DNA from: Salinispira sp.
Lineage (GTDB): Bacteria > Spirochaetota > Spirochaetia > DSM-27196 > Salinispiraceae
Assembly: GCA_965226555.1 (NCBI GenBank)
Contig: CBDDDG010000010.1
Coordinates: 256,001 to 320,000 of the forward strand
Reading direction: 5' to 3'
DNA length: 64,000 nucleotides
The notes beneath the pieces were generated by a model, which did no database searches, had not been told where the DNA came from, and was given only the letters and a program-made list of their open reading frames with translations. A program made the translations under genes and the position numbers. Each line of letters begins with the position of its first letter. The stretch's first letter is position 1. Of the stretch, positions 4,231-54,411 are shown piece by piece.

Positions 4231-5321
4231 TCGATATGCCCTGTGAAAATTTTGCTACTGAAAATTTTGCTCTGCAAAATTCTTTGTGAAAGTTCTGCAA
4301 AAATTTCTCATGCAATAATATAGGATTTTTGTAGGGAATGTAAATAGTTTTTTGTGCAGATGGTGGAATATAAACCTTTGGACAGCCCCCCTCCCGTCCA
4401 CTTATTCCGCATTCCCGAGCCCTCCCTCCCGTAGCCCCGAAAAAAATCACACATTATTCAAAATTCTCTCAAAAAACACAATTAAAAATGACAGTTTACC
4501 CGTCACAGATATAGAGGAGAGAATTCACCATGGGACCATGTCGCCATGGGAACTCCCCTATTCAGAAAGAAACGTTCAGGAGGATTGTATGATCGATTTC
4601 AAAGAAAAACCCGCCCCCGTTCCCTACGACCAAGGATACCGCTCCCTGCTGTTCCAACCCGCAATAATGCTCCAATTTCTTCAACGCTTTGTTGGAGGCG
4701 CGTGGACGAAAAAACTCCGCCGTGAAGATATAACCATCGAAAACGGCACATTTTTCATCGACCATGCGAAAACACGGATGGCCGACATTGTCTGCAAAAT
4801 AACGCAGAAGGATCACACGGGAGATGTTGTCATTTATGTGCTCCTTGAGCATCAGTCCGGCGTGGACAAAGACATGCCCCTTCGCATGTCGGAGTATACG
4901 AATCTGCTCTACCGGAACATTCACCGATCTGGAGCAATTCCCGATGACTGCGAGTTGGTATTTCTGCCCATTGTGTTCTATAATGGTACGAGAAAATGGA
5001 AGGTGCCAGGGAACGTCAGAGAGCAACGGAAGCGGGAATTCCCGCAGTATCTTGCTCCTTTTCCTTATGATCTGATAAGTGAGAGCGATTATTCTGCGGA
5101 GCAGCTACAGAGTCGGGGAAGAATGTTTGCGGCTGTTATGTACCTTGATCTGTACTCGAAAAATCTGCTGAATACGGATTGGGACATTCGGAAGGTGGAG
5201 AAAGCGATAGCAGAAATGCTGAATGAAGAATCGCTGGAGCTGATAGAGGAATTTATCGGCGTGGTAGATTCGATGTTTGGAATAGTTATAGACTTCGATA
5301 CGCTAATGAAACAATTAGAAG

Positions 5322-5447
5322 CAAAGTTTTGCCAGAGGCAAAACTTTCTATAAAATTGGAGAATGCTAAGCACAAAGAAAGCATTCCAAATTTGAAACTT
5401 TTGCTATTGGAAATTGTGCTTGCACAATTTTCCAATGCAAAAGTTTC
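5322..5447. mobile_element. Composite palindromic element (27-bp hairpin + ~45-bp spacer + 54-bp hairpin)
   Basis: Same structure at 28678, 32646, 47305 and 52422; flanked by AGAAG/AGAAA. Confidence 0.85.
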
Positions 5448-5487
5448 AGAAAGAACAAAAGAACCGAGAGGTAAGGAGGTAGCGAAA

Positions 5488-5832
5488 ATGTTCAGAATGA
5501 ATGCGGAAACATTCAGAGCGCGCATTGCGGAGATGGGTCGGCAGGAAGGCCTGCGAACAGGCCGTGAAGAAGGATTGCAAACAGGTCGGCAGGAAGGACT
5601 TCAGACAGGATTGCAAACAGGCCGTGAAGAAGGACTTCAGAAGGGGCTACAGACAGGTCGACAGGAAGGACTTCAAAAGGGGCTACAGGCAGGCCGCGCT
5701 GAGGGGCATATTGAGGAGCGGAGAAAAAACGCCCGTAGTATGTTTTTGGAAGGCTTGTCGACAGAGGCTGTTCAGAGGATTACCGGGCTGAGCGATGAGG
5801 AAATGCGGACATTGCGGAACGGATCGCATTAA
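5488..5832 (+). CDS. Small C-terminal Rpn protein from an internal start (RpnS-like)
   Basis: Strong SD TAAGGAGGT (5472-5480) before ATG 5488; open frame MFRMNAETF...LRNGSH. Confidence 0.7.
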   Translation: MFRMNAETFRARIAEMGRQEGLRTGREEGLQTGRQEGLQTGLQTGREEGLQKGLQTGRQEGLQKGLQAGRAEGHIEERRKNARSMFLEGLSTEAVQRITGLSDEEMRTLRNGSH

Positions 5833-8702: not shown

Positions 8703-11700
8703 TTACTCGGGTAGTAAATATTTTTGTCTTATGACTCTTCTTTCACCACCAGAAATTTGCCATTCAACAGTGACATAATCACTTCCCCCGCCTTCCTTGT
8801 GAAGTACTTCAACGTAATACTTGGTACCGGCAACTAAGTTTTGGGTCACTGATTGCCGTTTGTTATCAGAGGCAATTTTTTGTTTGCTATCTGGAGAAGA
8901 ACCAAAATACAATTCAGCCTGATTATCAGCAGCAATCCAGAACGTATAGGTTCCTGTTACCTGTGGTGTAATATACCCATATATTCTTTGGCCGTAATCA
9001 TTTCTCCAATTTTTTGGAGCGACAAAATCATAAACCACACTGCGATAATCGGGATTATGAGGATAATTTGAATTATTCGTTAAATCGGCAATGCTGTTGC
9101 CGGTAATGTCAAGCCAGAGATCTCTTTTCAGTCCGCCGCCAACGGGGAAAGATACCTTACTCGCAGAAGGTAATCTACGGGTAGGATCCCCAACCTCAAG
9201 CATCGCCCTGAGAAGTGACCGAGGATCTTGTAGTGGAAGATCAAAACCCATTTCCCAGATCATGATTCCTCCCAGTTTTTCATTAATTGCCATATTTGTT
9301 TTTCTCTTGATCAGATCAATATTGTTAATTTTATAGCCATCTACAACATTTTGAGAAGAAGGCATATCAGGATAGTTTGTCCGAATAGTACGATATGAAG
9401 ATTCATATCCATCCCAGAAAGTATACCAGGCCTGTGGCGCTGACGCTGGAGCAACCCCATAGAAGCCAGTCCCAATGTTTAGTTGCTCACGCGCAAATCC
9501 TTTGTCAAGGAATGCATTCATCTCATCTACCGCATCACCATATGTATCATTACCCCATTCACCAAAACTATCCTGGCCCGAACTCTCGTATGCCATAATA
9601 TTCACATAATCAACGGCATTGACAACTGAGGCAGGCGCAGAATCTATTAGGGACAAACCACTAACTACAGCAATTGAGAGTTTTTTCCCATCCGCATTCA
9701 ATTCTGCTTTCAACTCGGTTAAATAGGTAACAAATGCAGGCCATTGACCGCTAGATGGCCATTCCCAATCGATATCAAGACCATAAAAACCGTTATTAAC
9801 AATAAACTCTACTATATTCCGGATATTTTTCGCCCGCTTTGTTGGATTACCTATGATATTGCCCAGTCCGCCGCCGCTGGGTGATGACCCCGCGCTGTAC
9901 CATAGCCGCGCGCTCTTTCCGGCGGCAGCTGTTTTAAAATTCTGCAGCCCATCTGGTTGAGAATCGGGTTCGAGTATATCAATATACGTATGAGCAAGAA
10001 GAATGACATCTGTCAGATAATCAAATATATTATCTTCAACGTAATATTGAGTATTATCCGTAGAATCATTATAATCAAAATCACGATACGGGGTATACCC
10101 GACAATTCGCAGCTTGGGATTGCCGACAGGTGTAGTTGCCGAAGCAGCTTCTGACCAATCACTCAGACCCGCAGCGTTCCGTGCGAGAATCCGCACATCA
10201 TACTTGGTGCTCTCATACAGTCCCGTAATGGTGTAGATCTTGTACGCGGCAATTGGAATTACAATAATAGGAGCAGCATTCATCCAGTTACTTTCCGAGA
10301 GCTTATACTGTAGTTGATACCCGGTAATGGGGGTGCCGCCATTGGCCGGCGCCGTCCATGTTGCGGTAATTTTCCCACTCCTCGCGACAAGACTGGGAGC
10401 AGCAGGCGCAGAAGGAGGACTGAATGTACTCTCCGAAACAGTTTGTGACCAATCACCCAGACCCAGACCGTTCAGTGCGCGCATCCGCACATCATACCTC
10501 GTGCTCTCACGCAGTCCCGTAATCTCGTAGGTGGCGGCAGCGCTCCCAATTACAATCGTATTCCCCCAGCTGCTTGTAGAGTTAGGCTTATACTGTAGAT
10601 GATACGAGCTAATGCGGCGGCCGCCATTGTTCGGCTCCGTCCATGTTACGGTAATTTTCCCACCCCCCGCGACAAGCATAGGAACAGGCGCAGAAGGAGG
10701 ACCGACTGGAGTTGCAACAGCAGGTGCTGACCACGAACTATTGCCCCCCTTATTTACGGCAAGCACTACTACACCGTAGGCAATGGTGTTTGTCAATCCG
10801 GTAATGGTGTGGCTTGTGCCGGTAATTCCCTCAATGCTCCCTATCAAGCTACTATCAGACGTATTATTTGAATCATAATATAACAATTCATACCCGGTAA
10901 TGGAGCCGCCGCCGTTCTCTTCCGGCGCCGTCCATGTTGCAATAATCTGCCTATCACCCGCGACAAGCGTGGGAGGAGCAGGCGCAGAAGGAGGTGCTGC
11001 AGGGGTTGCTGTGGCCGATGCGCCCCACGCGCCCACACCCATCGCATTCACAAAGCGCACCTGTACTTCATAGCTGTTGCCGTTTGTCAGTCCGGTAATT
11101 ATATGACTACATACTTCGTCGACCGTATCCTTGCATATGTTCGTGAATCCGGAGGTAATCTCCGTCCAGCTTCCGCTGCTGCCTTCGCGATAACGCAGGT
11201 GAGAGGCAGTGATCGCACTCTCGCCATCATCGCTTGAGATCCTCAACTGGAATATATGAACCACAAGTTCCGTGTTCCGTATTTCAATTGTCGGAGCAGC
11301 AGGCGCAGGAGGAGGTGCTGCGGGGGTTGCTGCGGCACTTTCCGACGGGGTGCTATTGCCCGTGACATTGACAGCGTACACCTGCACCTCGTACGCGGTA
11401 CCGTTTGTTAGGCCCGTAATGGTGTGGCTTGTCGCGGCAATGGAGGAAATGGTCGTTGTCGTATTCGAATCCAGCCAGCTTCCTGCCGGGCTGGTAACTT
11501 CGCGATACTGTAGTTCATAGGTAATAGGGCTGCCGCCGTCATCGGTCGGAGCCGTCCATGCTGCGGTAATCTGCGTATCTCCTGCTGTGAGCACAAGCGC
11601 GGTCGGCCGCATGGGAAGATTGCCAACAGGGGATGCTCCTGTACTCGGTTCCGACCATTCGCCCTTCCCCATCACGTTCACGGCGCGTGCGCGCACCTCG

Positions 11701-12688
11701 TACGCGGTGCTGTTTGTCAGGTCCGTGATGGTGTGGCTTGTCGCAGTACCTTCAACAATAATAGCGGGATCGTCCGCTTCAGGAATCCAGTTTTCTGCCG
11801 GGCTGGCAACTTCGCGATACTGTAGTTCATACCCGGTAATGGGGCTGCCGCCATTGTTCGGAGCAGTCCAGTGAACCGTGAGTTCCCCATTCCCCGGGAC
11901 AAGCCTGGGAGCAGCAGGCGCGACAGGAGGTGTTGCGGGGGTTGCTATGGCACTTTCCGACGGGGTACCACCGCCCGTGACATTGACAGCGTACACCTGC
12001 ACCTCGTACGCGGTACCGTTTGTCAGCCCCGTAATGGTGTGGCTTGTGTTTATGCCGATGCACGTCGGGGGAAATGGTCGTTGTCGTATTCGAATCCAGC
12101 CAGCTTCCTGCCGGGTCGGCAACTTCGCGATACTGTAGTTCATATCCGGTAATGGGGCTGCCTCCGTCATCGGCAGGCGCCGTCCATGCTGCGGTAATGT
12201 TCGTATCTCCTGCTGTGAGCACAAGCGCGGTCGGCTGCATGGGAAGATTGTCAACAGGGACTCCTCCTGTCGCTCGGTTCCGACCATTCGCCCTTCCCCA
12301 TCACGTTCACGGCGCGTGCGCGCACCTCGTACTCGGTGCTGTTTGTCATGCCCGTGATGGTGTGGCTTGTCGCAGTACTTTCAACAATAATAGCGGGATC
12401 GTCCGCTTCAGGAATCCAGTTTCCTGCCGGTCCGGCAACTTCGCGATACTGTAGTTCATATCCGGTAATGGGGCTGCCTCCGTCATCGGCAGGCGCCGTC
12501 CAGTGAACCGTGAGTTCCTCATCCCCCGGGACAAGCCTAGGAGCAGCCATTTCGCCCGGCGGGGTTGAGACCGCCACCGGCTCCGCCGCCGAATCGATAT
12601 CCAGTATTGGACATCCGGCAAGCAATGCAATAAAAATTGCGCTCAGTACAAGAATAATTGGTATAATATGGGATTTTTTGAAACACAT
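8703..12688 (-). pseudogene. Frameshifted copy of FN3-repeat / GH18 / PA14 lipoprotein (copy A)
   Basis: Near-identical to 13897-17898; frameshifts near 12270 and 12060; a 57-bp upstream deletion removes the GGAGG RBS; 14-aa in-frame deletion in the PA14 domain. Confidence 0.85.
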
Positions 12689-12839
12689 ACTGTAGGGTAA
12701 CAGAATGTGCTGGAGAATTGTGGGGTAATTTTTTCTGAAATGTGGTAATTTCTTAACCATTAAACAAAACTGCCGCGCATATTTATGAAGCGGTTCTGTC
12801 ATCCAGATTAATGTTGATTATTTCAGGTAAGTTGCCGTT

Positions 12840-13890
12840 TTACACAGTTTCCACAAACACGTACCATGTAAAACCGCGCGCTGCTATTGATACCGGTATA
12901 TCAATGCAGTAATTTCGGTCGAGAATATATTTCTCATATGTGCGTTCTTTCTCGGATACGTACACATTTTCGGAAAGTCCCGTATAGTAGAGAGGAATTT
13001 TTATACGTTCTTCCAATGTATGTGAAGATGGGTTATAGAATAGTGCTAATCCTCTATTGTATGGTATTTTGTAAGCGGACAAAATGTCCATAACATTGTT
13101 GGAGGTCTGTCCCATGTTCCATCGTATATATTCTGCCGCCCCAGTACTATCTGCCTGTTTCGCGGTAAGCTCCAATTTACCTCTCTGTACCCAACACCTG
13201 TCTGATTTGATCCGGATAGCATATATGAATCGGGAACACGTACATACACACCGCGGGAGCGAAGCCATGTGTAGAAAGCAATTATCGTTTGCCATTGTGT
13301 CCATATGGAATCGCCAAGTCCCTTATGACCAGGATGTTTTGTAGAGGCACATACATCAGCAGGATATGAACCATCATGAACGAATGTTTTTAGATCTAAT
13401 TCTTCAAAAATGGAATAAAGAGAATCAAAATACCTCTGTCCCCATTCTGATCCAAGGCACGGAGAATTTCCAAACCGGGGGGCACCCTTGATATGCAGTA
13501 CTGTCTCGTCTACTTCCTGAATTGCTTCAATGCCCTCTTCGAGAACCGGAGCGCTGATACTGCTGGTCTTACCGGTAAAAGGATTTACGACATCATGTTC
13601 ATCACTTATGCTTCTCGACGCCAGAAGAGAATATCCGCCATATTCTATTTTCTCATTGTCCAGCACATTACCGTATTGTTTCCTGAATTGTTTAAGCATT
13701 TCCATAAATTCTGCATTTGTCTGACTGCCCGTTCCACATCCTGTGCTTTGTTGGAAATGAGATGAAACATTAAAGGATTTTCAGTAACCCATGGGGCAAT
13801 GGTTCTGTACATTTGGGAGCGGGCCAAACCTCTCCGTTGCCTGTCGGTACTGGAATGAATGAGTTGATATTCACGAAATCCGGTAAGTTC
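12840..13890 (-). pseudogene. Decayed glycoside-hydrolase-like gene (alpha-galactosidase-like), fragmented
   Basis: Colinear pieces in different frames: RRGLARSQMYRTIAPWVTENP / GGYSLLASR..HDGSYP..GYREVNWSLPR..GRQNIYDGTW / GLALFYNP..IPLYYTGL; family assignment from recall only. Confidence 0.55.
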
Positions 13891-13896
13891 GGCACA

Positions 13897-16800
13897 TTAT
13901 GGTTCTAAATATTTTTGTCTTATGACCCCTCTTTCACCACCAGAAATTTGCCATGCAACAGCAACATGATCGCCTCCCCCGCCTGCCTTGTGAAGTACTT
14001 CAACATAATACCGAGTACCGGCAACTAAATTTTGGGTCACTGATTGCTGTGAGCTATATTTATCCCATTGATCTACATTAGTCCCTCCCGACTCGGGAAT
14101 GGAGGCAATTTTTTGTGTGCTATTTGGAGAAGAACCAAAATACAGTGCAGCCTGATTATCAGCAGCAATCCAGAACGTATAGGTTCCTGTTACCTGTGGT
14201 GTAATATACCCATATATTCTTTGGCCGTAATTATCTCTCCAATTTTTTGGAGCGACAAAATCATAAACCACACTGTGATAATCGGGATTATGAGGATAAT
14301 TTGAATTATTCGTTAAATTGGCAATGGTGTCGCCGGTAATGTTAAGCCAGATATCTCTTTTCAGTCCGCCGCCAACGGGGAAAGATACCTTACTCGCAGA
14401 AGGTAATGTACGGGTAGGCTCCGCAATCTCAACCATCGCCCTGAGAAGTGACCGAGGATCTTGTAGTGGAATATCAAAACCCATTTCCCAGATCATGAGT
14501 CCTCCCAGATTTTCATTAATTGCCAGATTTGTTTTTCTCTTGATCAGATCAATATTGTTAAAAGCATAGCCATCTGCAACATCTTGAGAAGAAGGCATAT
14601 CAGGATAGAGTGTCCGAATAGTACGATATGATCCTTCATATCCATCCCAGAAATTATACCAGCCGTGTGGCAATGACCCTTCATTGGTATGGCGTCCATA
14701 GAAGGCAACCGCAATGTTTATTTGCTCACGCGTAAATCCTTTGTTAAGGAATGCATTCATCTCATCTACCGCATCACTATAGGTAGCATGACCACCTCCG
14801 CCCCGCCTATCGTATGCCATAACATTCACATAATCAACGGCATTGACAACTGAGGCAGGCGCAGAACCTATATTCCCACTATATGAAGCAATTGAGAGTT
14901 TTTTCCCCTCCGCATGCAATGCTGCTTTCAACTCGGTCAAATAGGTATTAAATGCAGGCCATTGACCGCCAGAGGGGTATTCCCAATCGATATCAAGACC
15001 ATAAAAACCGTTATTAACAATAAACCCTACTACATTCCGGATGTTTTCCGCCCGCTTTGTTGGATTACCTATGATATTGCCCAGTCCGCCGCCGCTGGGT
15101 GATGACCCCGAGCAGTACCATAACCGCGCTCTCTTTCCGGCGGCAGCTGTTTTAAAATTCTGCAGCCCATCTGGTTGAGAATCGGGTGTGAGTATATCAA
15201 TATACGTATGAGCAAGAAGAATGGCATCTGTCAGATAATCAAATACATTATCTTCAATTAAATATTGAGTAATATCCGTAGAATCAGTATACGCAAAATC
15301 ACGATACGGGGTATACCCGACAATTCGCAGCTTGGGATTGCCATTGCCGAGGGGTGTAGTTGCCGAAGCAGCTTCTGACCAATCACTCAGACCCGCAGCG
15401 TTCCTTGCGAGAATCCGCACATCATACTTGGTGTCCCCATACAGTCCCGTAATGGTGTAGATGGGAAACCTGTGCGCGGGAATTTCAATAATAGGAGCAG
15501 CATTCATCCAGTTACTTTCCGAGAGCTTATACTGTAGATGATACAAGAAAATGGGGGTGCCGCCATTGGCCGGCGCCGTCCATGTTGCGGTAATTTCCCC
15601 ATTCCCCGCAACAAGACTGGGAGCAGCAGGCGCAGAAGGAGGACCGAATGTACTCTCCGAAACAGTTTGTGACCAATCACCCAGACCCAGACCGTTCCGT
15701 GCGCGCATCCGCACATCATACCTCGTGCTCTCACGCAGTCCCGTAATGTCGTAGGTGGCGGAGGCGCTCCCAATTACAATCGTATCTCCCCAGCTGCTTG
15801 TAGAGTTAGGCTTATACTGTAGATGATACGAGCTAATGCGGCGGCCGCCATTGTTCGGCTCCGTCCATGTTACGGTAATTTTCCCACCCCCCGCGACAAG
15901 CATAGGAACAGGCGCAGAAGGAGGACCGACTGGAGTTGCAACAGCAGGTGCTGACCACGGACTATTGCCCCCCTTATTTACGGCAAGCACTACTACACCG
16001 TAGGCAATGGTGTTTGTCAATCCGGTAATGGTGTGGCTTGTGCCGGTAATTCCCTCAATGCTCCCTATCAAGCTACTATCAGACGGATTATTTGAATCAT
16101 AATATAACAATTCATACCCGGTAATGGAGCCGCCGCCGTCCTCGGTCGGCGCCGTCCATGTTGCAATAATCTGCCTATCACCCGCGACAAGCGTGGGAGG
16201 AGCAGGCGCAGAAGGAGGTGCTGCAGGGGTTGCTGTGGCCGATGCGCCCCACGCGCCCACACCCATCGCATTCACAAAGCGCACCTGTACTTCATAGCTG
16301 TTGCCGTTTGTCAGTCCGGTAATTATATGACTACATACGTCGACCGTATCCTTGCATATGTTCGTGAAGCCGGAGGTAATCTCCGTCCAGCTTCCGCTGC
16401 TGCCCTCGCGATAACGCAGGTGAGAGGCAGTGATCGCACTCTCGCCATCATCGCTTGATATCCTCAACTGGAATATATGAACCACAAGTTCCGTGTCCCT
16501 TATTTCAATTGTCGGAGCAGCAGGCGCAGGAGGAGGTGCTGCGGGGGTTGCTGCGGCACTTTCCGACGGGGTGCTATTGCCCGTGACATTGACAGCGTAC
16601 ACCTGCACCTCGTACGCGGTACCGTTTGTTAGGCCCGTAATGGTGTGGCTTGTCGCGGCAATGGAGGAAATGGTCGTTGTCGTATTCGAATCCAGCCAGC
16701 TTCCTGCCGGGCTGGTAACTTCGCGATACTGTAGTTCATAGGTAATAGGGCTGCCGCCGTCATCGGTCGGAGCCGTCCATGCTGCGGTAATCTGCGTATC

Positions 16801-17898
16801 TCCTGCTGTGAGCACAAGCGCGGTCGGCCGCATGGGAAGATTGCCAACAGGGGATGCTCCTGTACTCGGTTCCGACCATTCGCCCTTCCCCATCACGTTC
16901 ACGGCGCGTGCGCGCACCTCGTACGCGGTGCTGTTTTTCAGGTCCGTGATGGTGTGGCTTGTCGCAGTACCTTCAACAATAATAGCGGGATCGTCCGCTT
17001 CAGGAATCCAGTTTCCTGCCGGTCCGGCAACTTCGCGATACTGTAGTTCATACCCGGTAATGGGGCTGCCGCCATTGTTCGGAGAAGTCCAGTGAACCGT
17101 GAGTTCCCCATTCCCCGGGACAAGCGTGGGAGCAGCAGGCGCTACAGGAGGTGTTGCGGGGGTTGCTATGGCACTTTCCGACGGGGTACCACCGCCCGTG
17201 ACATTGACAGCGTACACCTGCACCTCGTACGCGGTACCGTTTGTTAGGCCCGTAATGGTGTGGCTTGTCGCGGCAATGGAGGAAATGGTCGTTGTCGTAT
17301 TCGAATCCAGCCAGCTTCCTGCCGGGTCGGCAACTTCGCGATACTGTAGTTCATATCCGGTAATGGCGGGTCTGCCGTTCTCTTCCGGCGCCGTCCATGT
17401 TGCGATAATCTGCGTATCTCCTGCTGTGAGCACAAGCGCGGTCGGCCGCATGGGAAGATTGCCAACAGGGGCTCCTCCTTCGCTCGGTTCCGACCAGTCG
17501 CCCTTCCCCATCACGTTCACGGCGCGTGCGCGCACCTCGTACTCGGTGCTGTTTGTCATGCCCGTGATGGTGTGGCTTGTCGCAGTACTTTCAACAATAA
17601 TAGCGGGATCGTCCGCTTCAGGAATCCAGTTTTCTGCCGGTCCGGCAACTTCGCGATACTGTAGTTCATATCCGGTAATGGGGCTGCCTCCGTCATCGGC
17701 AGGCGCCGTCCAGTGAACCGTGAGTTCCTCATCCCCCGGGACAAGCCTAGGAGCAGCCATTTCGCCCGGCGGGGTTGAGACCGCCACCGGCTCCGCCGCC
17801 GAATCGATATCCAGTATTGGACATCCGGCAAGCAATGCAATAAAAATTGCACTCAGTACAAGAATAATTGGTATAATATGGGATTTTTTGAAACACAT
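13897..17898 (-). CDS. Surface lipoprotein: about 8 FN3 domains + GH18 chitinase-like domain + PA14 domain (copy B, intact)
   Basis: Lipobox LLAGC; repeated W..P..GGSPITGYELQYR...YEVRARAVN; GLDIDWE, VNVMAYD, GGLMIWE; PA14 YTFWIAADNQA; RBS GGAGG. Confidence 0.9.
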   Translation of the reverse strand: MCFKKSHIIPIILVLSAIFIALLAGCPILDIDSAAEPVAVSTPPGEMAAPRLVPGDEELTVHWTAPADDGGSPITGYELQYREVAGPAENWIPEADDPAIIVESTATSHTITGMTNSTEYEVRARAVNVMGKGDWSEPSEGGAPVGNLPMRPTALVLTAGDTQIIATWTAPEENGRPAITGYELQYREVADPAGSWLDSNTTTTISSIAATSHTITGLTNGTAYEVQVYAVNVTGGGTPSESAIATPATPPVAPAAPTLVPGNGELTVHWTSPNNGGSPITGYELQYREVAGPAGNWIPEADDPAIIVEGTATSHTITDLKNSTAYEVRARAVNVMGKGEWSEPSTGASPVGNLPMRPTALVLTAGDTQITAAWTAPTDDGGSPITYELQYREVTSPAGSWLDSNTTTTISSIAATSHTITGLTNGTAYEVQVYAVNVTGNSTPSESAAATPAAPPPAPAAPTIEIRDTELVVHIFQLRISSDDGESAITASHLRYREGSSGSWTEITSGFTNICKDTVDVCSHIITGLTNGNSYEVQVRFVNAMGVGAWGASATATPAAPPSAPAPPTLVAGDRQIIATWTAPTEDGGGSITGYELLYYDSNNPSDSSLIGSIEGITGTSHTITGLTNTIAYGVVVLAVNKGGNSPWSAPAVATPVGPPSAPVPMLVAGGGKITVTWTEPNNGGRRISSYHLQYKPNSTSSWGDTIVIGSASATYDITGLRESTRYDVRMRARNGLGLGDWSQTVSESTFGPPSAPAAPSLVAGNGEITATWTAPANGGTPIFLYHLQYKLSESNWMNAAPIIEIPAHRFPIYTITGLYGDTKYDVRILARNAAGLSDWSEAASATTPLGNGNPKLRIVGYTPYRDFAYTDSTDITQYLIEDNVFDYLTDAILLAHTYIDILTPDSQPDGLQNFKTAAAGKRARLWYCSGSSPSGGGLGNIIGNPTKRAENIRNVVGFIVNNGFYGLDIDWEYPSGGQWPAFNTYLTELKAALHAEGKKLSIASYSGNIGSAPASVVNAVDYVNVMAYDRRGGGGHATYSDAVDEMNAFLNKGFTREQINIAVAFYGRHTNEGSLPHGWYNFWDGYEGSYRTIRTLYPDMPSSQDVADGYAFNNIDLIKRKTNLAINENLGGLMIWEMGFDIPLQDPRSLLRAMVEIAEPTRTLPSASKVSFPVGGGLKRDIWLNITGDTIANLTNNSNYPHNPDYHSVVYDFVAPKNWRDNYGQRIYGYITPQVTGTYTFWIAADNQAALYFGSSPNSTQKIASIPESGGTNVDQWDKYSSQQSVTQNLVAGTRYYVEVLHKAGGGGDHVAVAWQISGGERGVIRQKYLEP

Positions 17899-27091: not shown

Positions 27092-28657
27092 CTATTCTTC
27101 AATTTCTTCAAACAGGGTGTAGGCATAGAGTTTAGCGCCCCCAGCAGTAATAGGAGGAGTAGTAGAAGTACCAGCACCATTCACATCACTTGCTATCCAC
27201 ATCGTTCTTCCATCTGACCAGATACCGGTATTATCTGTGTTTTCGATATCATTGAGTGTGAACGTTTTTGTTGGATCGGAGGTTCCGTCACTCATCTTGT
27301 AGGCGGCAATCCGAGTTCTCATAACATCGGTACCCATATCATCAATGGTAACATCAGCCAGTATCCACAGTGTGGTTCCATCTGACCATATACCTTCGAG
27401 CCTACCCAGATTATCGCTTAGGTTGATATCTTTTGCAGAATCAGCTTCTCCGGTACTCAGCTTGTAGGCATAGATTTTTTTATTACTACCATTAGTATCT
27501 GCCACCCACATTGTCGTTCCGTTCGACCAGATGCCTGCGGGAATTGTGCCTGAGTACACTCCGCTTACGGGATATGGAGCGCCACTGACAGTGAAACTTT
27601 TGTTTGTGTCTGGCATTGGATCAAAGTTTCCGTTACTCATTTTATTATGGGCGTGGATGTTAGCATGAGAACCATATTCTCCCTCTGTCACCCACATCGT
27701 TTCTCCATCTGACCAGATATACAAGGGTTGATAGGAGAGATTGATATCACTTCCTGACATACGGGTTTTGTCACTCACTTTGTAGGCATAGATTTTTCTA
27801 TTATCACTAGTATCTGCCACCCACATTGTCGTCTCATCCGACCAAATGCCGTAGGGGTAACTGATTACGGCACCCGCCATATCCAGACTATCGAAATTCT
27901 TACTTTCGTCATAGGCGCCGACAAATTTCAGCCCTCCGGATTGAGATGGAGACCACGCGCCATTGCCCTGCGCATTGGCGGCGCGGACACGCACATCGTA
28001 GCTCATGCCGTTTTCGAGGTTCATAATGGTGTGGGTTGTAGCTGGCGCGGCGACAGTAATAGCAGCGATGCTCGTTGTGTTATCTGGCGGCCAGTCATCG
28101 GCGCTGAGTTTGCGCTGCACATGGTACTCGGTAATGGCGCTGCCGCCATTATCTTTCGGAGCAGTCCATGTAGCAGTGATTTCCCCATTCCCCGCTTCGA
28201 GGGTTGGAGCATCCGGCGCGGCAGGAACGGCAACAGGGGTTGCGACGGCAGATTTCGACCATGCGCTGGGTCCCTGCGCGTTAACGGCGCGCACCTGTAC
28301 TTCGTAGGTGTTGCCGTTTGTCAGTCCGGTAATGATCCGGCTTGCGCTGGTAATGCCGGAAATATCCGTCCATGCTCCGCCGCCTGTGCGATATTGCAGC
28401 TCATACCCGGTAATGGCGCTGCCGCCATCGTCCGGCGCAGTCCATGTTGCGGTAAGTATCGCATTCCCCGATTCAAGGGTTGGCGCAGCCATTGTGCCCG
28501 GCACAGTTGGATCGGGTGGATCGGGTTCCGGTGTTGGGCATCCGCTGAGTACCAGCGCCGCAACAATGAAGGTAAGTATCGCTCTGAAAAAACGGAACTT
28601 GTGTTGTGTTGTGTTGTGTTGTGTTGTGTTGTGTTGTGTTGTGTTGTCTGAAATCAT
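27092..28657 (-). CDS. Surface lipoprotein: 2 FN3 domains + beta-propeller-like repeats
   Basis: RBS AAGGAG; lipobox VLSGC; FN3 motifs; repeated GIWSDGTTMWVAD...KIYAY. Confidence 0.85.
   Translation of the reverse strand: MISDNTTQHNTTQHNTTQHKFRFFRAILTFIVAALVLSGCPTPEPDPPDPTVPGTMAAPTLESGNAILTATWTAPDDGGSAITGYELQYRTGGGAWTDISGITSASRIITGLTNGNTYEVQVRAVNAQGPSAWSKSAVATPVAVPAAPDAPTLEAGNGEITATWTAPKDNGGSAITEYHVQRKLSADDWPPDNTTSIAAITVAAPATTHTIMNLENGMSYDVRVRAANAQGNGAWSPSQSGGLKFVGAYDESKNFDSLDMAGAVISYPYGIWSDETTMWVADTSDNRKIYAYKVSDKTRMSGSDINLSYQPLYIWSDGETMWVTEGEYGSHANIHAHNKMSNGNFDPMPDTNKSFTVSGAPYPVSGVYSGTIPAGIWSNGTTMWVADTNGSNKKIYAYKLSTGEADSAKDINLSDNLGRLEGIWSDGTTLWILADVTIDDMGTDVMRTRIAAYKMSDGTSDPTKTFTLNDIENTDNTGIWSDGRTMWIASDVNGAGTSTTPPITAGGAKLYAYTLFEEIEE
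28601..28645. repeat. Pentanucleotide SSR (GTGTT)x9 in the 5' coding region
   Basis: Nine perfect GTGTT units encoding NTTQH repeats just after the start codon. Confidence 0.95.
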
Positions 28658-28677
28658 ATAATCTCCTTTGAATATCA

Positions 28678-28883
28678 GAAACTTTTGCTGCTGAAAATTG
28701 TGCAGAGCTCAATTTTCAGCAGCAAAAGTTTCCGATCTGGAATGCTTTCTTTGTGCTTAGCATTCTCCTATTTTATAGAAAGTTTTGCATTTTGCAAAAC
28801 TTTGTATCAGAAACTTTTGCATTGATAAAGTTTTGCCTCAACGGAAAATTGTGCAGAGCTCAATTTTCAGCAGCAAAACTTTC
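28678..28883. mobile_element. Composite palindromic element (28678-28804, TSD TATCA) plus adjacent copy (28810-28883)
   Basis: TATCA at 28673-28677 and 28805-28809; conserved hairpins and spacer. Confidence 0.85.
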
Positions 28884-28983
28884 CATATCTTGAGAAAATC
28901 AAGAATATCACAAAATTTTCTATAAGTATACTACGAAAACCATATAATTGCAATTTTTCAATAGCCAATGCGATTCTGTGAAA

Positions 28984-30609
28984 TTAATACCATGATGGCA
29001 GCAGATCACCTATTACGCCGGAGTCAATGAACATGTCGACTTTGAGTCCGGTATATGTGCCGTTTCTATTGATGCCGACAGTATTGGGGTCAGCATCATT
29101 ATCGGGCATCCAATAATCCTTCCATTCCTCAAGATTTTGATTGAATGCAGATGCACTCCGGAACATATGGCTCATATTTGTTACCGAGCCGACATCCCAG
29201 TCCGAGATATCGCCATTGAAGGAGCTTGCGCTCTGGAACATCCCGGACATATTCCTTACCGAACTGACAGTCCATTCCGAGATATCGCCATTGAAGGCGC
29301 TTGCCCCAAAGAACATTCCAAGCATATTCCTTACCGCGCTGACATCCCAGTCCGAGATATCGCCATTGAATGCGCTTCTCTCGAACATCTGCTGCATATT
29401 CGTTACTGAGCTGACATTCCAGCCGGAGATATTGCCATTGAAGGCGTTTGCGCCATCGAACATATATCCCATATCCGTTATTGCTGTGGTAATAATGTAG
29501 TTGAGATCGGCAGTATTGCCCCAGGTTGATATTCCCGCAGCTACCGCTGTTTTCAGTGCCGCGTTATCAGCAGGACTCACGGTAACATAAAACTTTTCGG
29601 TAACCCGTGTATTCTTATCGGTTCCGTCTATGACAGATACATTGTATGTTCCAGCCGTTGTACTCGCGCTAACGGTAATAACTCCGGTACTTGAGTCAAC
29701 TGTCGGCGGGGCAACCGATCTCATGGAAGTAACCCCAGCCACAGTAACGCTTGGCTTCTCCGCATTGGCAACTGCCTCATCAATGGCAGCCGACAGAATG
29801 ACGGACATTGCCGCACCACCTGGAGGAACCTTCGGAACCTGCCTCGCAAGCGGCCGCAGTGTTCTTGTTGCGGATGCAGACCATTCGCCATCGCCCTGCG
29901 CGTTGACAGCGCGCACCCGCACATCGTAGGAGGTGGTACCGTCGTTCGTCAGTCCGGTAATGGTGTGGCTCGCAACAGTACCGGCGATAGGGTCGGTGAC
30001 CGGCGTCCAGTTAGAACCGCTGTCTGAACTATACTGCACATGGTACTTGGTAATGTCGTTGCCGCCGTCATCTGGCGCAGCCCATGAGGCGGTGAGCTGG
30101 GTGTCTCCAACTGTGAGCGTGGGAGCATTCGGCGCGCTGGGAACGGTATCGTAGATTATGGTTACTATCAGGTAGCTGTTGCCGGAAGGATGAACAAGCG
30201 GCGCCTCGACGGCAGCCTTGTATGCGTGAATGCTGAGTCGGTCGCCTAAAAGTGTGAAGGGGTTTTCTTTATTTTGCGTTGCGCTGGTAATGCCGTTGTA
30301 TGCGGGAATTTCTGCAAATGAGTCGCCAAATGCATAGTGTATGACTGCGCCGGGAGTATCTGACTGTGCGATAATTTCCACATTATTATATTTGACAGTT
30401 ATTTCGCCTGCCTTGGGCTCCCAAAGATCAGTGCCTTTTTTGCGGACATACCATTGCGGCTTCTGCGCGCGCTCAACATTGTTGTTAACGGCGCTGGGGG
30501 GAATGCGGTCGTCTTTATTGGGAATGTAGACAAAGGCTGAGGGGCAGGCCGCAAGTATGAGCATGAAAACACAAAGAACGGTAATATATAGTTTTTTCCG
30601 AACATTCAT
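28984..30609 (-). CDS. Surface lipoprotein: FN3 + DUF285 (BspA-like) repeats
   Basis: RBS GGAGAG before ATG 30609; lipobox ILAAC; FNGDISDWDVS.V.NM..MF repeats. Confidence 0.88.
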   Translation of the reverse strand: MNVRKKLYITVLCVFMLILAACPSAFVYIPNKDDRIPPSAVNNNVERAQKPQWYVRKKGTDLWEPKAGEITVKYNNVEIIAQSDTPGAVIHYAFGDSFAEIPAYNGITSATQNKENPFTLLGDRLSIHAYKAAVEAPLVHPSGNSYLIVTIIYDTVPSAPNAPTLTVGDTQLTASWAAPDDGGNDITKYHVQYSSDSGSNWTPVTDPIAGTVASHTITGLTNDGTTSYDVRVRAVNAQGDGEWSASATRTLRPLARQVPKVPPGGAAMSVILSAAIDEAVANAEKPSVTVAGVTSMRSVAPPTVDSSTGVITVSASTTAGTYNVSVIDGTDKNTRVTEKFYVTVSPADNAALKTAVAAGISTWGNTADLNYIITTAITDMGYMFDGANAFNGNISGWNVSSVTNMQQMFERSAFNGDISDWDVSAVRNMLGMFFGASAFNGDISEWTVSSVRNMSGMFQSASSFNGDISDWDVGSVTNMSHMFRSASAFNQNLEEWKDYWMPDNDADPNTVGINRNGTYTGLKVDMFIDSGVIGDLLPSWY

Positions 30610-32509: not shown

Positions 32510-34637
<2,128 letters not shown>

Positions 34638-46946: not shown

Positions 46947-46980
46947 ATTATCCGCTCTGCGCGCAGGCAGAGCGGATAAT
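46947..46980. terminator. Hairpin directly after the Rpn stop
   Basis: ATTATCCGCTCTGC-N6-GCAGAGCGGATAAT perfect 14-bp inverted repeat. Confidence 0.6.
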
Positions 46981-48004
46981 TAGTGCGATCCGTTCCGCAA
47001 TGCCCGCATTTCCTCATCGCTCAGCCCGGTAACATCCTGAATGTCATGGGCTGAAAATCCTTTGGAAAACATACTGCGGGCCGTTTCTCGAATGCCTTCT
47101 TCACGACCTGTCTGCAATCCTGTCTGAAGTCCTTCTTCACGACCTGTCTGCAATCCTTCCTGCCGACCTGTCTGAAGTCCTTCCTGCCGACCTGTTCGCA
47201 GTCCTTCCTGCCGACCCATTTCCGCAATGCGCGCTCTGAATGTTTCCGCATTCATTCTGAACATTTTCGCTACCTCCTTACCTCTCGGTTCTTTTGTTCT
47301 TTCTGAAACTTTTGCATTGGAAAATTGTGCAAGCACAATTTCCAGTAGCAAAAGTTTCAAATTTGGAATGCTTTCTTTGTGCTTAGCATTCTCCAATTTT
47401 ATAGAAAGTTTTGCCTCTGGCAAAACTTTGCTTCTAACTGGTTCATTAGCGTGTCAAAGTCTATAACAATTCCGAACATCGAATCTACCACGCCGATAAA
47501 TTCCTTTATCAGCTCCAGCGATTCCTCATTCAGCATTTCTGCTATCGCTTTCTCCACCTTCTGAATGTCCCAATCCGTATTCAGCAGATTTTTCGAGTAC
47601 AGATCAAGGTACATAACAGCCGCAAACATTCTTCCCCGCTGCTGCAGCTGCTCCGCAGAATAATCGCTCTCACTTATCAGCTCGTAAGGAAAAGGGGGCA
47701 AGATACTGCGGGAATTTCCGCTTCCGTTGCTTTCTGACATTCCCGGGCACCTTCCATTTTCTCGTACCATTATAAAACACAATGGGCAGAAATATCAACT
47801 CGCAGTCATCGGGAATTGCGCCGGAGCGGTGAATGTTCCGGTAGAGAAGGTTTGTGTACTCCGACATGCGGAGGGGCATGTCTTTGTCCATGCGCCTCCG
47901 ACAAAGCGTTGCAGAAATTGGAGCATTATTGCGGGTTGGAACAGCAGAGAGCGGTATCCTTGGTCGTAGGGAACGGGGGCGGGTTTTTCTTTGAAATCGA
48001 TCAT
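46980..48004 (-). pseudogene. Second type-1 Rpn copy, disrupted; small C-terminal ORF 47264-46980 intact
   Basis: Close copy of 4589-5832 with a 160-bp deletion between GCGTGGAC repeats (removes ADIVCKI..LEHQS), a +1 near 47695 and the same insertion at 47305-47430. Confidence 0.88.
47305..47430. mobile_element. Composite palindromic element (126 bp)
   Basis: Reverse complement of 5322-5447 at the homologous site. Confidence 0.85.
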
Positions 48005-48020: not shown

Positions 48021-48074
48021 GAAAGTTTTGCTACTGGAAATTGTGCTTGCACAATTTTCCAATGCAAAAATTTC
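48021..48074. mobile_element. 54-bp palindromic element with TSD TGAAC
   Basis: TGAAC at 48016-48020 and 48075-48079; absent from the paralogous site at about 4570-4585. Confidence 0.92.
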
Positions 48075-48209: not shown

Positions 48210-49320
48210 GCTGGATTCAACATTTGAAGTGCACCACTTCGGGCCCACTGTGAGATAGTTTAAGCATTCTATCAAAAGCTTCCTGCGGTGTCAAATAGTT
48301 CAGAATTTTTCGCGGTCGATTGTTGAGCGACCGCTGAAACTCCAGTATTTTCCCTGCGTCAATCATATTGAAATCGCAGGACTTGGGAAATTGTCGGCGT
48401 ATGAGACCGTTGGTGTTCTCTACCGTTCCCTTTTCCCAACTGTGATACGGCTGGCAAAAATATACCTGCATACCAGTCAGCCGCTCAATGTTCTTATGAC
48501 GAGCGTTCTCGCTTCCGTTGTCGAGAGTGAGTGTCCTCCGCAGGTCGGGGGGCAATGACCCGAGCAGCGAAATGGCATGATGAGCAAAGGTAAATGATGT
48601 TCTATCCGCAAGCGGAGCAATGAAGGTCATCCGGGTTGCCCGTTCAACAAATACCGCCACAGCGCTGCGCTGACCCTTTCCAATTATACAATCGCCTTCC
48701 CAATGTCCTTCCTCGACACGGGCGTCAACCTCTTTTGGGCGCTCGCTAATTCCTTTCTTGCCAACGACATCGGGGTTCTTCTTACAATAAGCTCTCCGGT
48801 CGCAGCGTCTCTTCCGTTTCTTTCTCCGGGTCGGCAGCAGAACGCACCACTGACGATTTTTCGGTCGGTAACAATACTGGTAAATGGCTTCATGGCTTAT
48901 CGATTGACCGGTAATATCAATACCAATGCGCCCTGAGATTTGCTCGGGAGACCAGCTGCATTCCAGCTTTTCATGAACATAGTTCAGGACAATATCATTT
49001 TTCAGATGCGTATACTGACCTTTGTTTTTCCGACGCTCCCGCGCCTTCCGCTGAGCCTGATGAGCTACATACCGCCCGTGATCATTCCGGTTACGGTTCA
49101 ATTCGCGGTAAATGGTCGTATGGCAACACCCAATGGCCCGGGCTATCTCCCTGACGGGATATCCTTTTCGTCGATAATAGGCAATATCCTCATCACTTAT
49201 CCGTATCCAACTGATTATACTGTCTGTGCGCCACCTTTTTGTCCTCCTCGTAGTGGTTTTTTCTTATACTCACTATATCTCAGAGGGCGGGGAGGTGGTG
49301 CACTTATGGTTGAATTCACC
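48210..49320 (-). mobile_element. IS30-family insertion sequence
   Basis: Imperfect terminal IRs GCTGGATTCAAC..AAGTGCACCAC / GGTGAATTCAAC..AAGTGCACCAC; exact ends uncertain by 1-2 bp. Confidence 0.85.
48217..49234 (-). pseudogene. IS30 transposase, probably frameshifted near codon 14
   Basis: WSPEQI, GHWEGD, TLDNGSE, SWEKGTVENTNGLIR, LNNRPRK. GTG 49234 after GAGGAGG reaches TGA at 49195-49193; the HTH continues in another frame. Confidence 0.75.
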
Positions 49321-51055: not shown

Positions 51056-51220
51056 CTGCGCTCCACCTCCGGCAGGCGCGGGGGGCTGGTCGGAGGCGTG
51101 CGCCTCCGGGGCTGCTCGCCATGCGTCCGGCTCGCCCATGCGGCTGTTGCTGAGACTGGGCTGGTCGGCGTTGCACGCCTGCTCGCCATGCGGCTGTTGC
51201 TGAGACGGGGGCTGGTCGGA
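51056..51220. repeat. GC-rich dispersed/tandem repeat
   Basis: CTGCGCTCCACCTCCGGCAGGCGCGGGGG(G)CTGGTCGG also at 54606-54644 and partly at 53230-53248; internal duplication of CCATGCGGCTGTTGCTGAGAC. Confidence 0.75.
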
Positions 51221-51303: not shown

Positions 51304-51930
51304 ATGCCAGAACTAACCGTACAAGAAATTAAAGACATGATGGCAGAAACGGCAAAGGCCCAAAAGGAGGCTCGAATTGAGGCTGAGCGTCGAGGGAGGG
51401 AAATTGACCTTCGAATGGAAAAGGACAGACAAGAGGCTAAGCGTCGAGGGAAGGAACTGGACCGCCGAATGAAGGAAACCGACCGCAGGCTAAAAAAGCT
51501 CGATGAACTCTTTACCTCCCAGTGGGGCAAGCTCATAGAGAGCCTCGTGGAGGGCGACTTGGTAAAGTTGCTCAAGATGAGAGGAATTACCGTAGACAAA
51601 ACTTTGGTTAGAAGAGAATATATAGAAGTTCCGGGAAAACCGCTTGCCGAGTTTGATCTTATTGCCTGCAACGGCAATGAAACGGTGGTAATTGAAGTTA
51701 AAACCACTCTCAGGGTAGAAGATGTGGATCATTTTCTCAAGAGCATGAAACTATTTCGAACAGCCATGCCCCGCTTTCAAAACGATATTATTTACGGGGG
51801 TGTTGCCTACATAAATGTTGTTGGATCGGCCGATAAATACGCTCAAAAAAAGAAGATCTTTGCCATTAAAGCCACGGGTTCCAGCGCCTCCATTATCAAC
51901 GCCGAAGACTTTGAACCGCAGACATTTTAA
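51304..51930 (+). CDS. Coiled-coil + PD-(D/E)XK restriction-endonuclease-like protein (DUF3782-like)
   Basis: RBS GAGGAG; KETDRR coil, WGKLIESLV, EFDLIA.NG..VVIEVKTTL. Confidence 0.75.
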   Translation: MPELTVQEIKDMMAETAKAQKEARIEAERRGREIDLRMEKDRQEAKRRGKELDRRMKETDRRLKKLDELFTSQWGKLIESLVEGDLVKLLKMRGITVDKTLVRREYIEVPGKPLAEFDLIACNGNETVVIEVKTTLRVEDVDHFLKSMKLFRTAMPRFQNDIIYGGVAYINVVGSADKYAQKKKIFAIKATGSSASIINAEDFEPQTF

Positions 51931-51936
51931 TTCATA

Positions 51937-51990
51937 GAAAGTTTTGCCTTGGAAAATTGTGCAAGCACAATTTCCAGTAGCAAAACTTTC
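51937..51990. mobile_element. 54-bp palindromic element, flanks not duplicated
   Basis: GAAAGTTTTGCCTTGGAAAATTGTGCAAGCACAATTTCCAGTAGCAAAACTTTC. Confidence 0.85.
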
Positions 51991-51992
51991 GT

Positions 51993-52757
51993 ATTGAGCA
52001 CAAAAGCGCGTATGATCCAAAGGTCAGCGAACAGTTCGATAAATACCAGAAAGCCCTCATAAACAGCAGGACATTTCAGGCGCAGACCGATCTTCTTGTT
52101 CTGGTGCTATGGTACCATGGCGAACTGATATGGGAAGGAGATCTCAGTTTCCACAGTTCAGGGGATGTGCATACACACATACCGGAAAAATTGTACACAA
52201 TGATGGAAAAATACCTTGCGAGGCCAAAGGTTCTCAATAGGCCTGTGATGCTCGATGTGAATAGGATGTGAGCGAGGAGGAGTTTACCCGGGGGTCAGAC
52301 GGGGTTATGTTGACAGGGGGAGCTCTGTGCTATATTATGCGGAAAGTCAGTAAGACAGGCGATGAAGACTTGAAACTGGATACACGCTTTGAAAAAATCA
52401 ACAGGGAAATAAATCCCGAAACAAAATTTTGCCTGAGGCAAAATTTTCTACAAAATGCGAGAATGCTAAGCACATAGAGTCATCCAAATGTGAAACTTTT
52501 GCTACTGGAAATTGTGCTCTGCACAATTTTCCAATGCAAAAGTTTCTGGAGGAGAAAGACGTATGATGAAAAAAGTTCAGATGAGCGATTGGTTTGTCAA
52601 CCAAGGCATGGAGAAAGGTCGCGCGGAGGGGCATATTGAGGAGCGGAGAAAAAACGCCCGCAGTATGTTTTCGGAAGGCTTGTCGACAGAGGCTGTTCAG
52701 AGGATTACCGGGCTGAGCGATGAGGAAATGCGGACAGTGCGGAACGGATCGCATTAA
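51993..52757 (+). pseudogene. Type-2 Rpn remnant lacking the N-terminus; small C-terminal ORF 52563-52757 intact
   Basis: Hand translation IEHKSAY..YQKAL..LWYHGE..W, 2-bp frameshift at about 52269, ALCYIMR..FEKINRE; colinear with 53350-54411. Confidence 0.8.
52422..52546. mobile_element. Composite palindromic element (125 bp)
   Basis: Same three-part structure as 5322-5447; removing it plus 5 bp restores the Rpn frame. Confidence 0.8.
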
Positions 52758-53349: not shown

Positions 53350-54411
53350 ATGAAAAAATCATCCCAGAGCACAGGCCATATCCACGACATAGCCTTCAAG
53401 ATCGCCTACTACAGAACCCCCCGTATGATTCCCGACCTGCTACGGCTGTTCTGTGAGGATACGACTCTTGCCAAGCTGGACTTGGGCAAAATTCGTATTG
53501 AAAACCCCAGCTACATTGCAGGAAAAAAGAACCTTCACTGCGATCTCATTGTCAGCGCCCCCTTCTTGTCAGACCCCGACCGGAAGGCCCTATTCATTAT
53601 TGAACACAAAAGCTACCAGCATAAACATGCTCTCACACAGATCGATAATTATCAGTATGCCCTCAGAAACAGCAATGTGTACAATGAAAATGATGCTATC
53701 TATATACTGCTGCTCTACCATGGAAAAAATGAATGGAACCTCCCACTCACATTTTACAGTTCGCATGGAACTCCAGCTTCCGAATCCCTTACCGAAGGCA
53801 CGGTGGATGTCAGGGCGAGAGTGTCGTACATTGTGCGCGATCTGAGGCGAATGGACAAAAGGCAGTTGGCATTGCGTTTCGATGGAAAACGATATACATC
53901 GACTGCGTTGTGGTATATAATGCGAGATAATGAGATGGATGCTGAGGGGCTGAAAGAAATTGCGCAGCTCCTGAACGGTCTGTCATCACAAGACTTTACT
54001 GATCTGGCAGAGAGTGTGCTAGGGTACCTGAAAGATCTGGGACTGTATGGACAGTTTGAGAAAATTGACAGGGAACTATATTCTGAAGGAGAAAACAGTA
54101 TGCGGACATATAATATTACCAACGCCTTCGTCAGAGAAGGCATTGCGAAGGGCCGGATTGAGGGTCTTGAACAGGGAATGGAGAAAGGCATTCTGAAAGG
54201 CCGGGTTGAGGGTCTTGAGCAGGGTATCACAAAGGGCAGGGCTGAGGGCATTGAGAAAGGACTGCGAACAGGTCGCGCTGAGGGGCATATTGAGGAGCGG
54301 AGAAAAAACGCCCGCAGTATGTTTTTGGAAGGGTTGTCGACCGAGGCTGTTCAGAGGATTACCGGGCTGAGCGATGAGGAAATGCGGACATTGCGGAACG
54401 GATCGCATTAA
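53350..54411 (+). CDS. Rpn-family nuclease, type 2, apparently intact; probable internal start at 54100
   Basis: HDIAFK, CDLIVS, IIEHKS, LLLYHG..W, EG/KG repeats; internal AAGGAG 54086-54091 before an in-frame ATG. Confidence 0.88.
   Translation: MKKSSQSTGHIHDIAFKIAYYRTPRMIPDLLRLFCEDTTLAKLDLGKIRIENPSYIAGKKNLHCDLIVSAPFLSDPDRKALFIIEHKSYQHKHALTQIDNYQYALRNSNVYNENDAIYILLLYHGKNEWNLPLTFYSSHGTPASESLTEGTVDVRARVSYIVRDLRRMDKRQLALRFDGKRYTSTALWYIMRDNEMDAEGLKEIAQLLNGLSSQDFTDLAESVLGYLKDLGLYGQFEKIDRELYSEGENSMRTYNITNAFVREGIAKGRIEGLEQGMEKGILKGRVEGLEQGITKGRAEGIEKGLRTGRAEGHIEERRKNARSMFLEGLSTEAVQRITGLSDEEMRTLRNGSH

Follow-up and report, generated by a model that had tools for sequence, protein, structure and literature searches.

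A gene-less MITE, likely mobilised by a resident IS5-family transposase, interrupts rpn genes upstream of their predicted antitoxin in a Salinispira genome

Introduction

The rpn genes are a gene-in-gene family, in which the long frame (RpnL, the nuclease) contains a small, internally initiated frame (RpnS, the predicted antitoxin). In Escherichia coli, the cited parts of 10.1101/2023.05.02.539157 describe an internal transcription start in rpn genes, stand-alone rpnS genes, inhibition that is specific for the repeat number and RpnS lengths varying in 4-residue steps. Deletion of the tail of E. coli RpnD was reported to reduce toxicity without abolishing it (PMC5350276). Prokaryotic MITEs that carry promoters and reside upstream of genes are known (PMC10969869), and the E. 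coli IS5 element favours destabilised promoter DNA (PMC5493358). A literature search, with subscription journals outside its coverage, listed no paper that deals with MITEs inside rpn genes or with the MITE family described below.

Results

The window, i.e. the whole stretch of 64,000 nucleotides analysed here, belongs to Salinispira sp. (assembly GCA_965226555.1, contig CBDDDG010000010.1, positions 256,001 to 320,000). A sequence-only reading of the window had claimed that the same cassette of about 126 bp lies in sense orientation in three Rpn loci, where it stops the long frame and leaves RpnS open, and this was confirmed. The copies at 5322-5447 (+), 47305-47430 (-) and 52422-52546 (+) measure 126, 126 and 125 bp, respectively, all three are sense to the rpn gene, and the three-hairpin fold of the element has a z score of -6.0. 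The hosts, as also claimed, belong to two distinct Rpn types, with PF04754 above cut-off and 18% identity between types A and C. The features of these loci are as follows.

4589..5353, + strand: truncated long frame of a type-A rpn, encoding 244 aa of Rpn followed by 10 residues from the element, with a complete nuclease domain (PF04754 65 bits, cut-off 21)
5317..5321, + strand: left target copy, AGAAG
5322..5447, + strand: MITE, 126 bp, consisting of a 27-bp hairpin, a middle hairpin and a 54-bp palindrome, with 11-bp terminal inverted repeats
5329..5356, + strand: sigma70-like TTGCCA-16-TAAAAT inside the MITE, facing RpnS (a consensus match only)
5448-5452, + strand: right target copy, AGAAA
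5474..5479, + strand: internal Shine-Dalgarno sequence AGGAGG
5488..5832, + strand: RpnS-like small ORF, 114 aa, with 4-residue repeats
46980..47264, - strand: RpnS-like ORF of the second type-A locus
47305..47430, - strand: MITE, identical insertion allele to that at 5322
47431..48004, - strand: type-A rpn long frame with a 152-nt deletion and indels
48021..48074, - strand: 54-bp MITE in the 5' leader of the preceding rpn, adjoining its main RBS upstream, with GTTCA on both flanks
51937..51990, + strand: 54-bp MITE unit at a junction, right before the catalytic I-E-H codons of a type-C remnant
51991..52421, + strand: type-C rpn remnant, of which the 5' 240 nt and an internal 83 nt are gone
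52422..52546, + strand: MITE variant, 125 bp, 90% identical to the type-A copies, flanked by CGAAA/TGGAG without a true duplication
52563..52757, + strand: type-C RpnS-like ORF, 64 aa, with the Shine-Dalgarno sequence GGAGG at 52548
53350..54411, + strand: intact type-B rpn with no insert at the homologue of the 52422 site

At the first locus the long frame (P0001) is ended by the MITE at 254 aa, and the RpnS frame stays open. Aside from the MITE, this gene is colinear with an intact paralogue, and it is the sole one of the three that is otherwise intact; compared to the reference, the 47305 locus is devoid of nt 123-274 and the 52422 locus of nt 1-240 and 619-701. The proposal that removal of the element plus 5 nt restores the frame in both types agrees with the length difference to intact paralogues, and the frame arithmetic works out in both lineages; however, the genes at 47305 and 52422 are broken elsewhere, so that cassette removal would not restore them. 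The distance of about 25 bp given for the internal RBS/ATG needs adjustment, the element ending 40 nt ahead of the ATG in both type-A loci (26 nt ahead of the AGGAGG at 5474) and 16 nt ahead of the ATG at 52563. The flanking repeats are near-direct in type A (AGAAG/AGAAA, where empty type-A alleles read AGAAA/ACAAA at the target) but not at 52422 (CGAAA/TGGAG).

Several other features of the window were recorded. An IS30-like transposase gene (48217-49101) lies directly upstream of the broken rpn, and similar ends truncate other type-A copies. A coiled-coil and PD-(D/E)XK-like protein (51304-51930) has 9 genome copies and no Pfam family above cut-off, and at several loci the 3' end of this type of gene runs straight into rpn sequence. 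Another palindromic repeat, GC-rich and 42 bp long (51083-51129 in the window), is common after rpn genes and occurs in frame in an IS5-family transposase gene (for example at C14:99091). The large repeat-rich genes at 8703-17898, 27092-30609 and 49478-51031 (fibronectin-III and DUF285 at 49478, similar repeats in the others) were not seen split by a MITE. Across the genome, CTAG and GGCC are strongly depleted (ratios of 0.33 and 0.50, respectively).

The genome harbours about 147 rpn copies, counted by Rpn tail matches (a few of which are orphan tails), and PF04754 matches in relatives number 0-6. The long frame is open for at least 320 aa in 78/147 loci, which form seven clusters. The best plasmid matches to the hosts carry Rpn-family annotation, and TIGR01784 scores below its cut-off. 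In members of the family, a tail built from 4-residue repeats follows an internal RBS and ATG that are in frame with the long ORF. RpnS varies in length by increments of four residues, and no two of the 53 type-A RpnS are alike. In a count anchored on the RpnS start (164 matches), RpnS was kept in 72/83 loci with a broken long frame and in 77/81 with an open one. Stand-alone type-E rpnS ORFs with their own RBS occur right after type-A rpn genes, i.e. after another lineage, at C10:75600, C18:61543 and C18:65070, an arrangement like that of E. coli ypaA.

The element itself is not Rpn-specific: a BLAST search of the genome yielded 855 matches including 83 full-length copies, and exact ends were found 542 (left) and 526 (right) times. 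Merging resulted in 636 blocks, 574 with the repeat core and 365 with both ends, grouped into 244 flank clusters, as befits a dispersed repeat of high copy number; the 62 blocks without the core include a second, GC-rich repeat. Modular forms of 25, 27, 54, 98 and 126 bp exist, none of them with a transposase gene inside. Flank duplications peak at 5 bp in the 27-, 54- and 126-bp classes (26/312, 32/243 and 22/103, respectively, against at most 6 at 4 bp and at most 1 at 6 bp), they are perfect in 88/365 two-ended blocks, and the target consensus is TWNWA. The target-site duplication of the intergenic class was borne out by comparison with empty-site pairs, and two copies of this ordinary class lie in the window.

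28678..28804, - strand: intergenic MITE, 127 bp, perfect 5-bp duplication TATCA
32646..32772, + strand: intergenic MITE, 127 bp, perfect 5-bp duplication TTAAT, upstream of a chaperonin gene

A resident 1340-bp IS has ends identical to the MITE end in 10/11 positions, encodes an IS5-family transposase (228 bits, cut-off 140) and is flanked by perfect 5-bp duplications at 7/8 copies, whereas the ends found for other resident IS families differ from those of the MITE. Judging from these shared ends and duplications, the MITE is likely mobilised in trans by the resident IS5-family transposase. Searches with PF01548, PF01797, PF00078 and PF13358 gave no match that would indicate a second mobiliser (IS110, Y1, RT or IS630) in the assembly, which is 93.5% complete. 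REP/RAYT or IS200/605-derived palindromes were rejected as the identity of the element, given this lack of a PF01797 match at 93.5% completeness and the commonness of 5-bp duplications. An Rfam search with the element returned nothing at gathering score, only sub-threshold hairpin matches. Also resident are three tyrosine recombinases, a second GIY-YIG protein not linked to the MITE, a 286-aa protein with a GIY-YIG match and an apparent internal duplication (C21:221293-222154), and a multicopy IS (C10:324386; 11 copies) with clear inverted repeats and a 391-aa protein showing faint DDE matches and no NCBIfam match.

The MITE was found in 0/30 related genomes, had no match among metagenome contigs and had 1 match among genome contigs beyond the window's genome. 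The latter contig, from another record, carries a MITE with a perfect GAATA duplication where the window's genome is empty, and its adjacent flank is 96% identical to contig C16. This pair of a filled and an empty site indicates recent mobility in the lineage. The contig is probably mis-binned and derived from a sister strain.

Gene starts from our own calls (2553 genes) were used to place the single-site copies. Only 4/211 of these fall inside a called gene, and 97/211 lie 10-45 nt before a predicted start, compared to 656 (22%) of 3000 matched intergenic TWNWA sites (OR 3.0, p 1e-13). Among the 67 copies near starts, a promoter-like -10 box ends within 3 nt of the target in 21 versus 6.5 expected, in a window chosen post hoc. 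The enrichment looks like a promoter-proximal signal, and it may be a survival bias; orientation near starts (25:14, p 0.11) is not significantly skewed. The suggestion that the element targets translation-initiation regions is thus borne out as a genome-wide enrichment before starts, in which targeting and survival bias are not separable.

Mapping of all block flanks revealed 18 rpn-internal sites in five lineages, namely A and D (2 each), B (5), C (3) and E (6). This count excludes two matches that lie beyond the tail of degenerate E-type rpnS remnants, a MITE fragment that belongs to a rearrangement within a type-B RpnS, and several one-flank matches. None of the inserts tested keeps the long frame intact, each causing a stop or a shift, and 24/46 broken rpn loci that carry a MITE carry two or more. 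Since RpnS is commonly retained and the sites are many, the 5322 site is one among others, and any insertion in the first three quarters of rpn would spare RpnS. In-frame peptide insertion, the mode of the Rickettsia palindromic elements, is ruled out by the stopped or shifted frames. Ribosomal bypass or RNA splicing was likewise rejected, as matched take-off and landing codons were seen by eye at few sites and two sites are antisense. The view of rpn genes as MITE-flanked composite transposons fails on the varying 3' boundaries of type-A copies.

Element variants are 97-98% identical within an rpn site and 89-90% identical between A, B and C, which makes a single origin of each site probable; two sites are exactly homologous in B and C and may go back to shared insertion events. 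The haplotypes of 46 type-A copies (2/48 were dropped for poor match), 10 filled and 36 empty, tell a different story about the neighbouring sequence. The 10 filled copies sit on 10 different upstream haplotypes, filled-filled identity (95.1%) is close to filled-empty identity (95.3%), the four-gamete test pairing each SNP with the filled state fails for 25/27, and monophyly of the filled copies is rejected (p-AU 0.0012). This mosaic suggests that the cassette likely moved into rpn copies by paralogue conversion and was probably also removed in this way, with 36 empty copies as donors. Conversion among paralogues suffices, excision between repeats is not needed, and in B and C it is unavailable. 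The sequence-only reading's idea that excision between flanking repeats re-arms the toxin is therefore not upheld, for such repeats exist in type A only, and the mosaic of haplotypes indicates that intact paralogues acted as conversion donors; a dedicated switch that works by excision is unlikely. A search for excised alleles found empty type-A junctions in contigs of four runs, where they are not assignable to a locus, and none of the 15 joints listed, out of 109, skips a unique-site MITE.

Discussion

Our preferred reading, to which we assign a probability of about 0.6, is that a gene-less MITE, likely mobilised by an IS5-family transposase, entered rpn genes, where a few alleles were likely tolerated, the predicted antitoxin being spared, and spread or were lost via recombination between paralogues. 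The transposase would prefer AT-rich, easily melted promoter or leader DNA, a preference that would account for some of the accumulation ahead of the internal start of RpnS. Each rpn site would likely have a single origin, and frequent conversion among paralogues of about 95% identity would copy the cassette in and probably out again. An insertion upstream of RpnS would generate a stand-alone small ORF, probably transcribed from the promoter-like sequence of the element, and an insertion inside RpnS would leave an uninhibited nuclease and likely be purged. Several observations count against this reading: the duplication-less rpn junctions, the G at +2 of these junctions, the sense bias, the recurrent bond before the catalytic Glu, and the density of sites in rpn (18 in 172 kb of coding DNA) compared to IS coding DNA (2 in 97 kb), the IS copies being younger.

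The sequence-only reading had also offered that the insertions are selected because they disarm the toxin and keep the antitoxin. In its fuller form, which we consider unlikely, positive selection would favour Rpn knock-outs that keep a promoter-fed RpnS, the orphan RpnS buffering armed paralogues. The distribution of sites partly speaks for it: 0/18 lie inside RpnS (p 0.006-0.05 by null), 16/18 are in sense orientation (p 0.001), and RpnS-proximal alleles make up 35/128 rpn-internal copies. The retention of RpnS at most broken loci (72/83), its breakage in just 4/81 loci with an open long frame, the promoter-like site in the element and the stand-alone rpnS genes of E. coli (10.1101/2023.05.02.539157) are likewise in line with selection. 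The enrichment beside RpnS, however, is only mild, with 4/18 sites no more than 45 nt before the RpnS start (p 0.02-0.18 across null models and with or without merging of B and C), and 14/18 sites lie far upstream of it, largely the scatter along other Rpn copies that the sequence-only reading had named as evidence against itself. In addition, 78/147 loci remain open. All type-A RpnS being distinct, an orphan RpnS is identical to that of an armed copy in 0/20 cases in type A and 1/37 in type B, while inhibition needs a matching repeat number; that no orphan type-A RpnS equals an armed copy weakens the buffering role.

Selection for disarming is also opposed by what remains of the toxin, as the truncated type-A product retains the whole PF04754 domain and loses the tail. 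By analogy with the tail deletion of E. coli RpnD, the truncation probably disarms the predicted nuclease in part. The tail lost from the type-A product is the part that RpnS binds, and its loss may leave the nuclease armed. The promoter-like site inside the MITE is not above chance for its region, which holds 5 sigma70-like sites versus 2.3 +/- 1.5 in shuffles; at empty sites, a search by eye for an internal RpnS promoter revealed weak matches only.

The junctions are the feature that IS5-mediated mobilisation leaves unexplained. Compared to the nearest empty allele, 14/15 testable rpn-internal sites need 2-5 mismatches to fit a 5-bp duplication, and the lone fit is the type-A site at 5322. 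The 4-5 additional bases at these junctions have the form A(A/C) to the left and NG(T) to the right of the element; a G stands at +2 past the end in 13/15 rpn-internal copies, compared to 6/54 of the remaining asymmetric ones (p 6e-8). The bond before the catalytic Glu is an insertion site in lineages B, C and E alike, where B and E (15% protein identity) hold different elements in opposite orientation, and the same junction type was found in one IS5 transposase gene. These duplication-less junctions likely stem from an older or second insertion route. A full IS5 copy lies in a type-A rpn (C18:62204-63543) with a perfect TAATA duplication, 10 nt from an older MITE.

In its strict form, a second, duplication-less integration route specific for nuclease genes (rpn and the one IS5 transposase gene) appears quite improbable to us. 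It would operate by capture at breaks, or by an enzyme moving a form 4-5 nt longer with the ends A(C/A)...NGT. The junction pattern and its recurrence at homologous bonds are what such a route predicts, the 54 non-rpn asymmetric clusters listed include no unique-locus copy of this class (only the transposase gene and an rpn leader), and the IS5-related Spy transposons insert without duplication (PMC4122938). Set against this, the blunt parse has five free bases, so that its good fit is partly built in; the searches for IS110, Y1, RT and IS630 gave no candidate enzyme in the 93.5%-complete assembly; the full IS5 and the type-A site have normal 5-bp duplications inside rpn; and old copies could persist in multicopy genes only. 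A broader picture, speculative and with the odds clearly against it, would regard the rpn array as a recombining library of about 150 toxin-antitoxin variants with the hairpin cassettes as portable off-switches. A second duplication-less chemistry would load them at recurring homologous bonds, which in three lineages lie just ahead of the catalytic Glu and in several just ahead of RpnS. Each cassette would supply a promoter that yields a stand-alone antitoxin, and paralogue conversion would arm and disarm loci. A programmed reversible switch, in which the toxin is re-armed when the cassette is cut out exactly between its 5-bp flanks, is very improbable: the type-A flanks are identical in 4/5 or 5/5 positions around a strong palindrome and empty junctions occur in contigs of four runs, but direct repeats are missing from types B and C, other lesions disrupt two of the three loci in the window, and the empty junctions are explained by the 36 empty paralogues, which serve as conversion donors.

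In this genome, a gene-in-gene toxin-antitoxin family has in effect undergone natural mutagenesis. The accumulation of insertions before, and not inside, the predicted antitoxin lends indirect support to the RpnL/RpnS model far from E. coli, and insertion upstream of RpnS shows one route to stand-alone rpnS genes. With about 150 recombining paralogues and nearly all RpnS distinct, the diversification of Rpn specificity becomes testable here. Should the junctions without duplication turn out to reflect a second integration route of one and the same MITE, they would be of interest to specialists in transposition.

Among known systems, the Rpn RpnL/RpnS systems in the cited parts of 10.1101/2023.05.02.539157 share with the present loci PF04754, the internal RBS and ATG, the tail with its 4-residue step, stand-alone rpnS genes and, as described there, genes with no fixed element ends around them. 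The repertoire is unusually large, about 147 copies compared with the 26 given there as an example. Unlike the described systems, paralogues recombine heavily here and orphan RpnS are made by MITE insertion; the RpnL/RpnS function is predicted by analogy. The resident 1340-bp element of the IS5 family (NF033581) shares its ends, the 5-bp duplication and AT-rich targets with the MITE, whose copies cluster near promoter-like sites in a manner resembling the preference of E. coli IS5 (PMC5493358); the rpn-internal junctions do not fit the IS5 pattern. Spy transposons, DDE elements related to IS5, have inverted repeats too and insert without generating a duplication, as at the rpn junctions; according to the cited part of PMC4122938 they are eukaryotic and have a fixed AAA^TTT target, whereas the targets here are variable and no enzyme was found. 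A further likeness is to the Correia elements of Neisseria which, as far as the cited part of PMC10969869 describes them, are also short and gene-less, with terminal inverted repeats, target duplication, high copy number, a position mostly upstream of genes and an internal promoter-like sequence. Unlike these, the Salinispira element has its modular forms of 25/27/54/98/126 bp and a second junction class without duplication, and it is a new sequence family of a known kind, the second junction class being its unusual trait.
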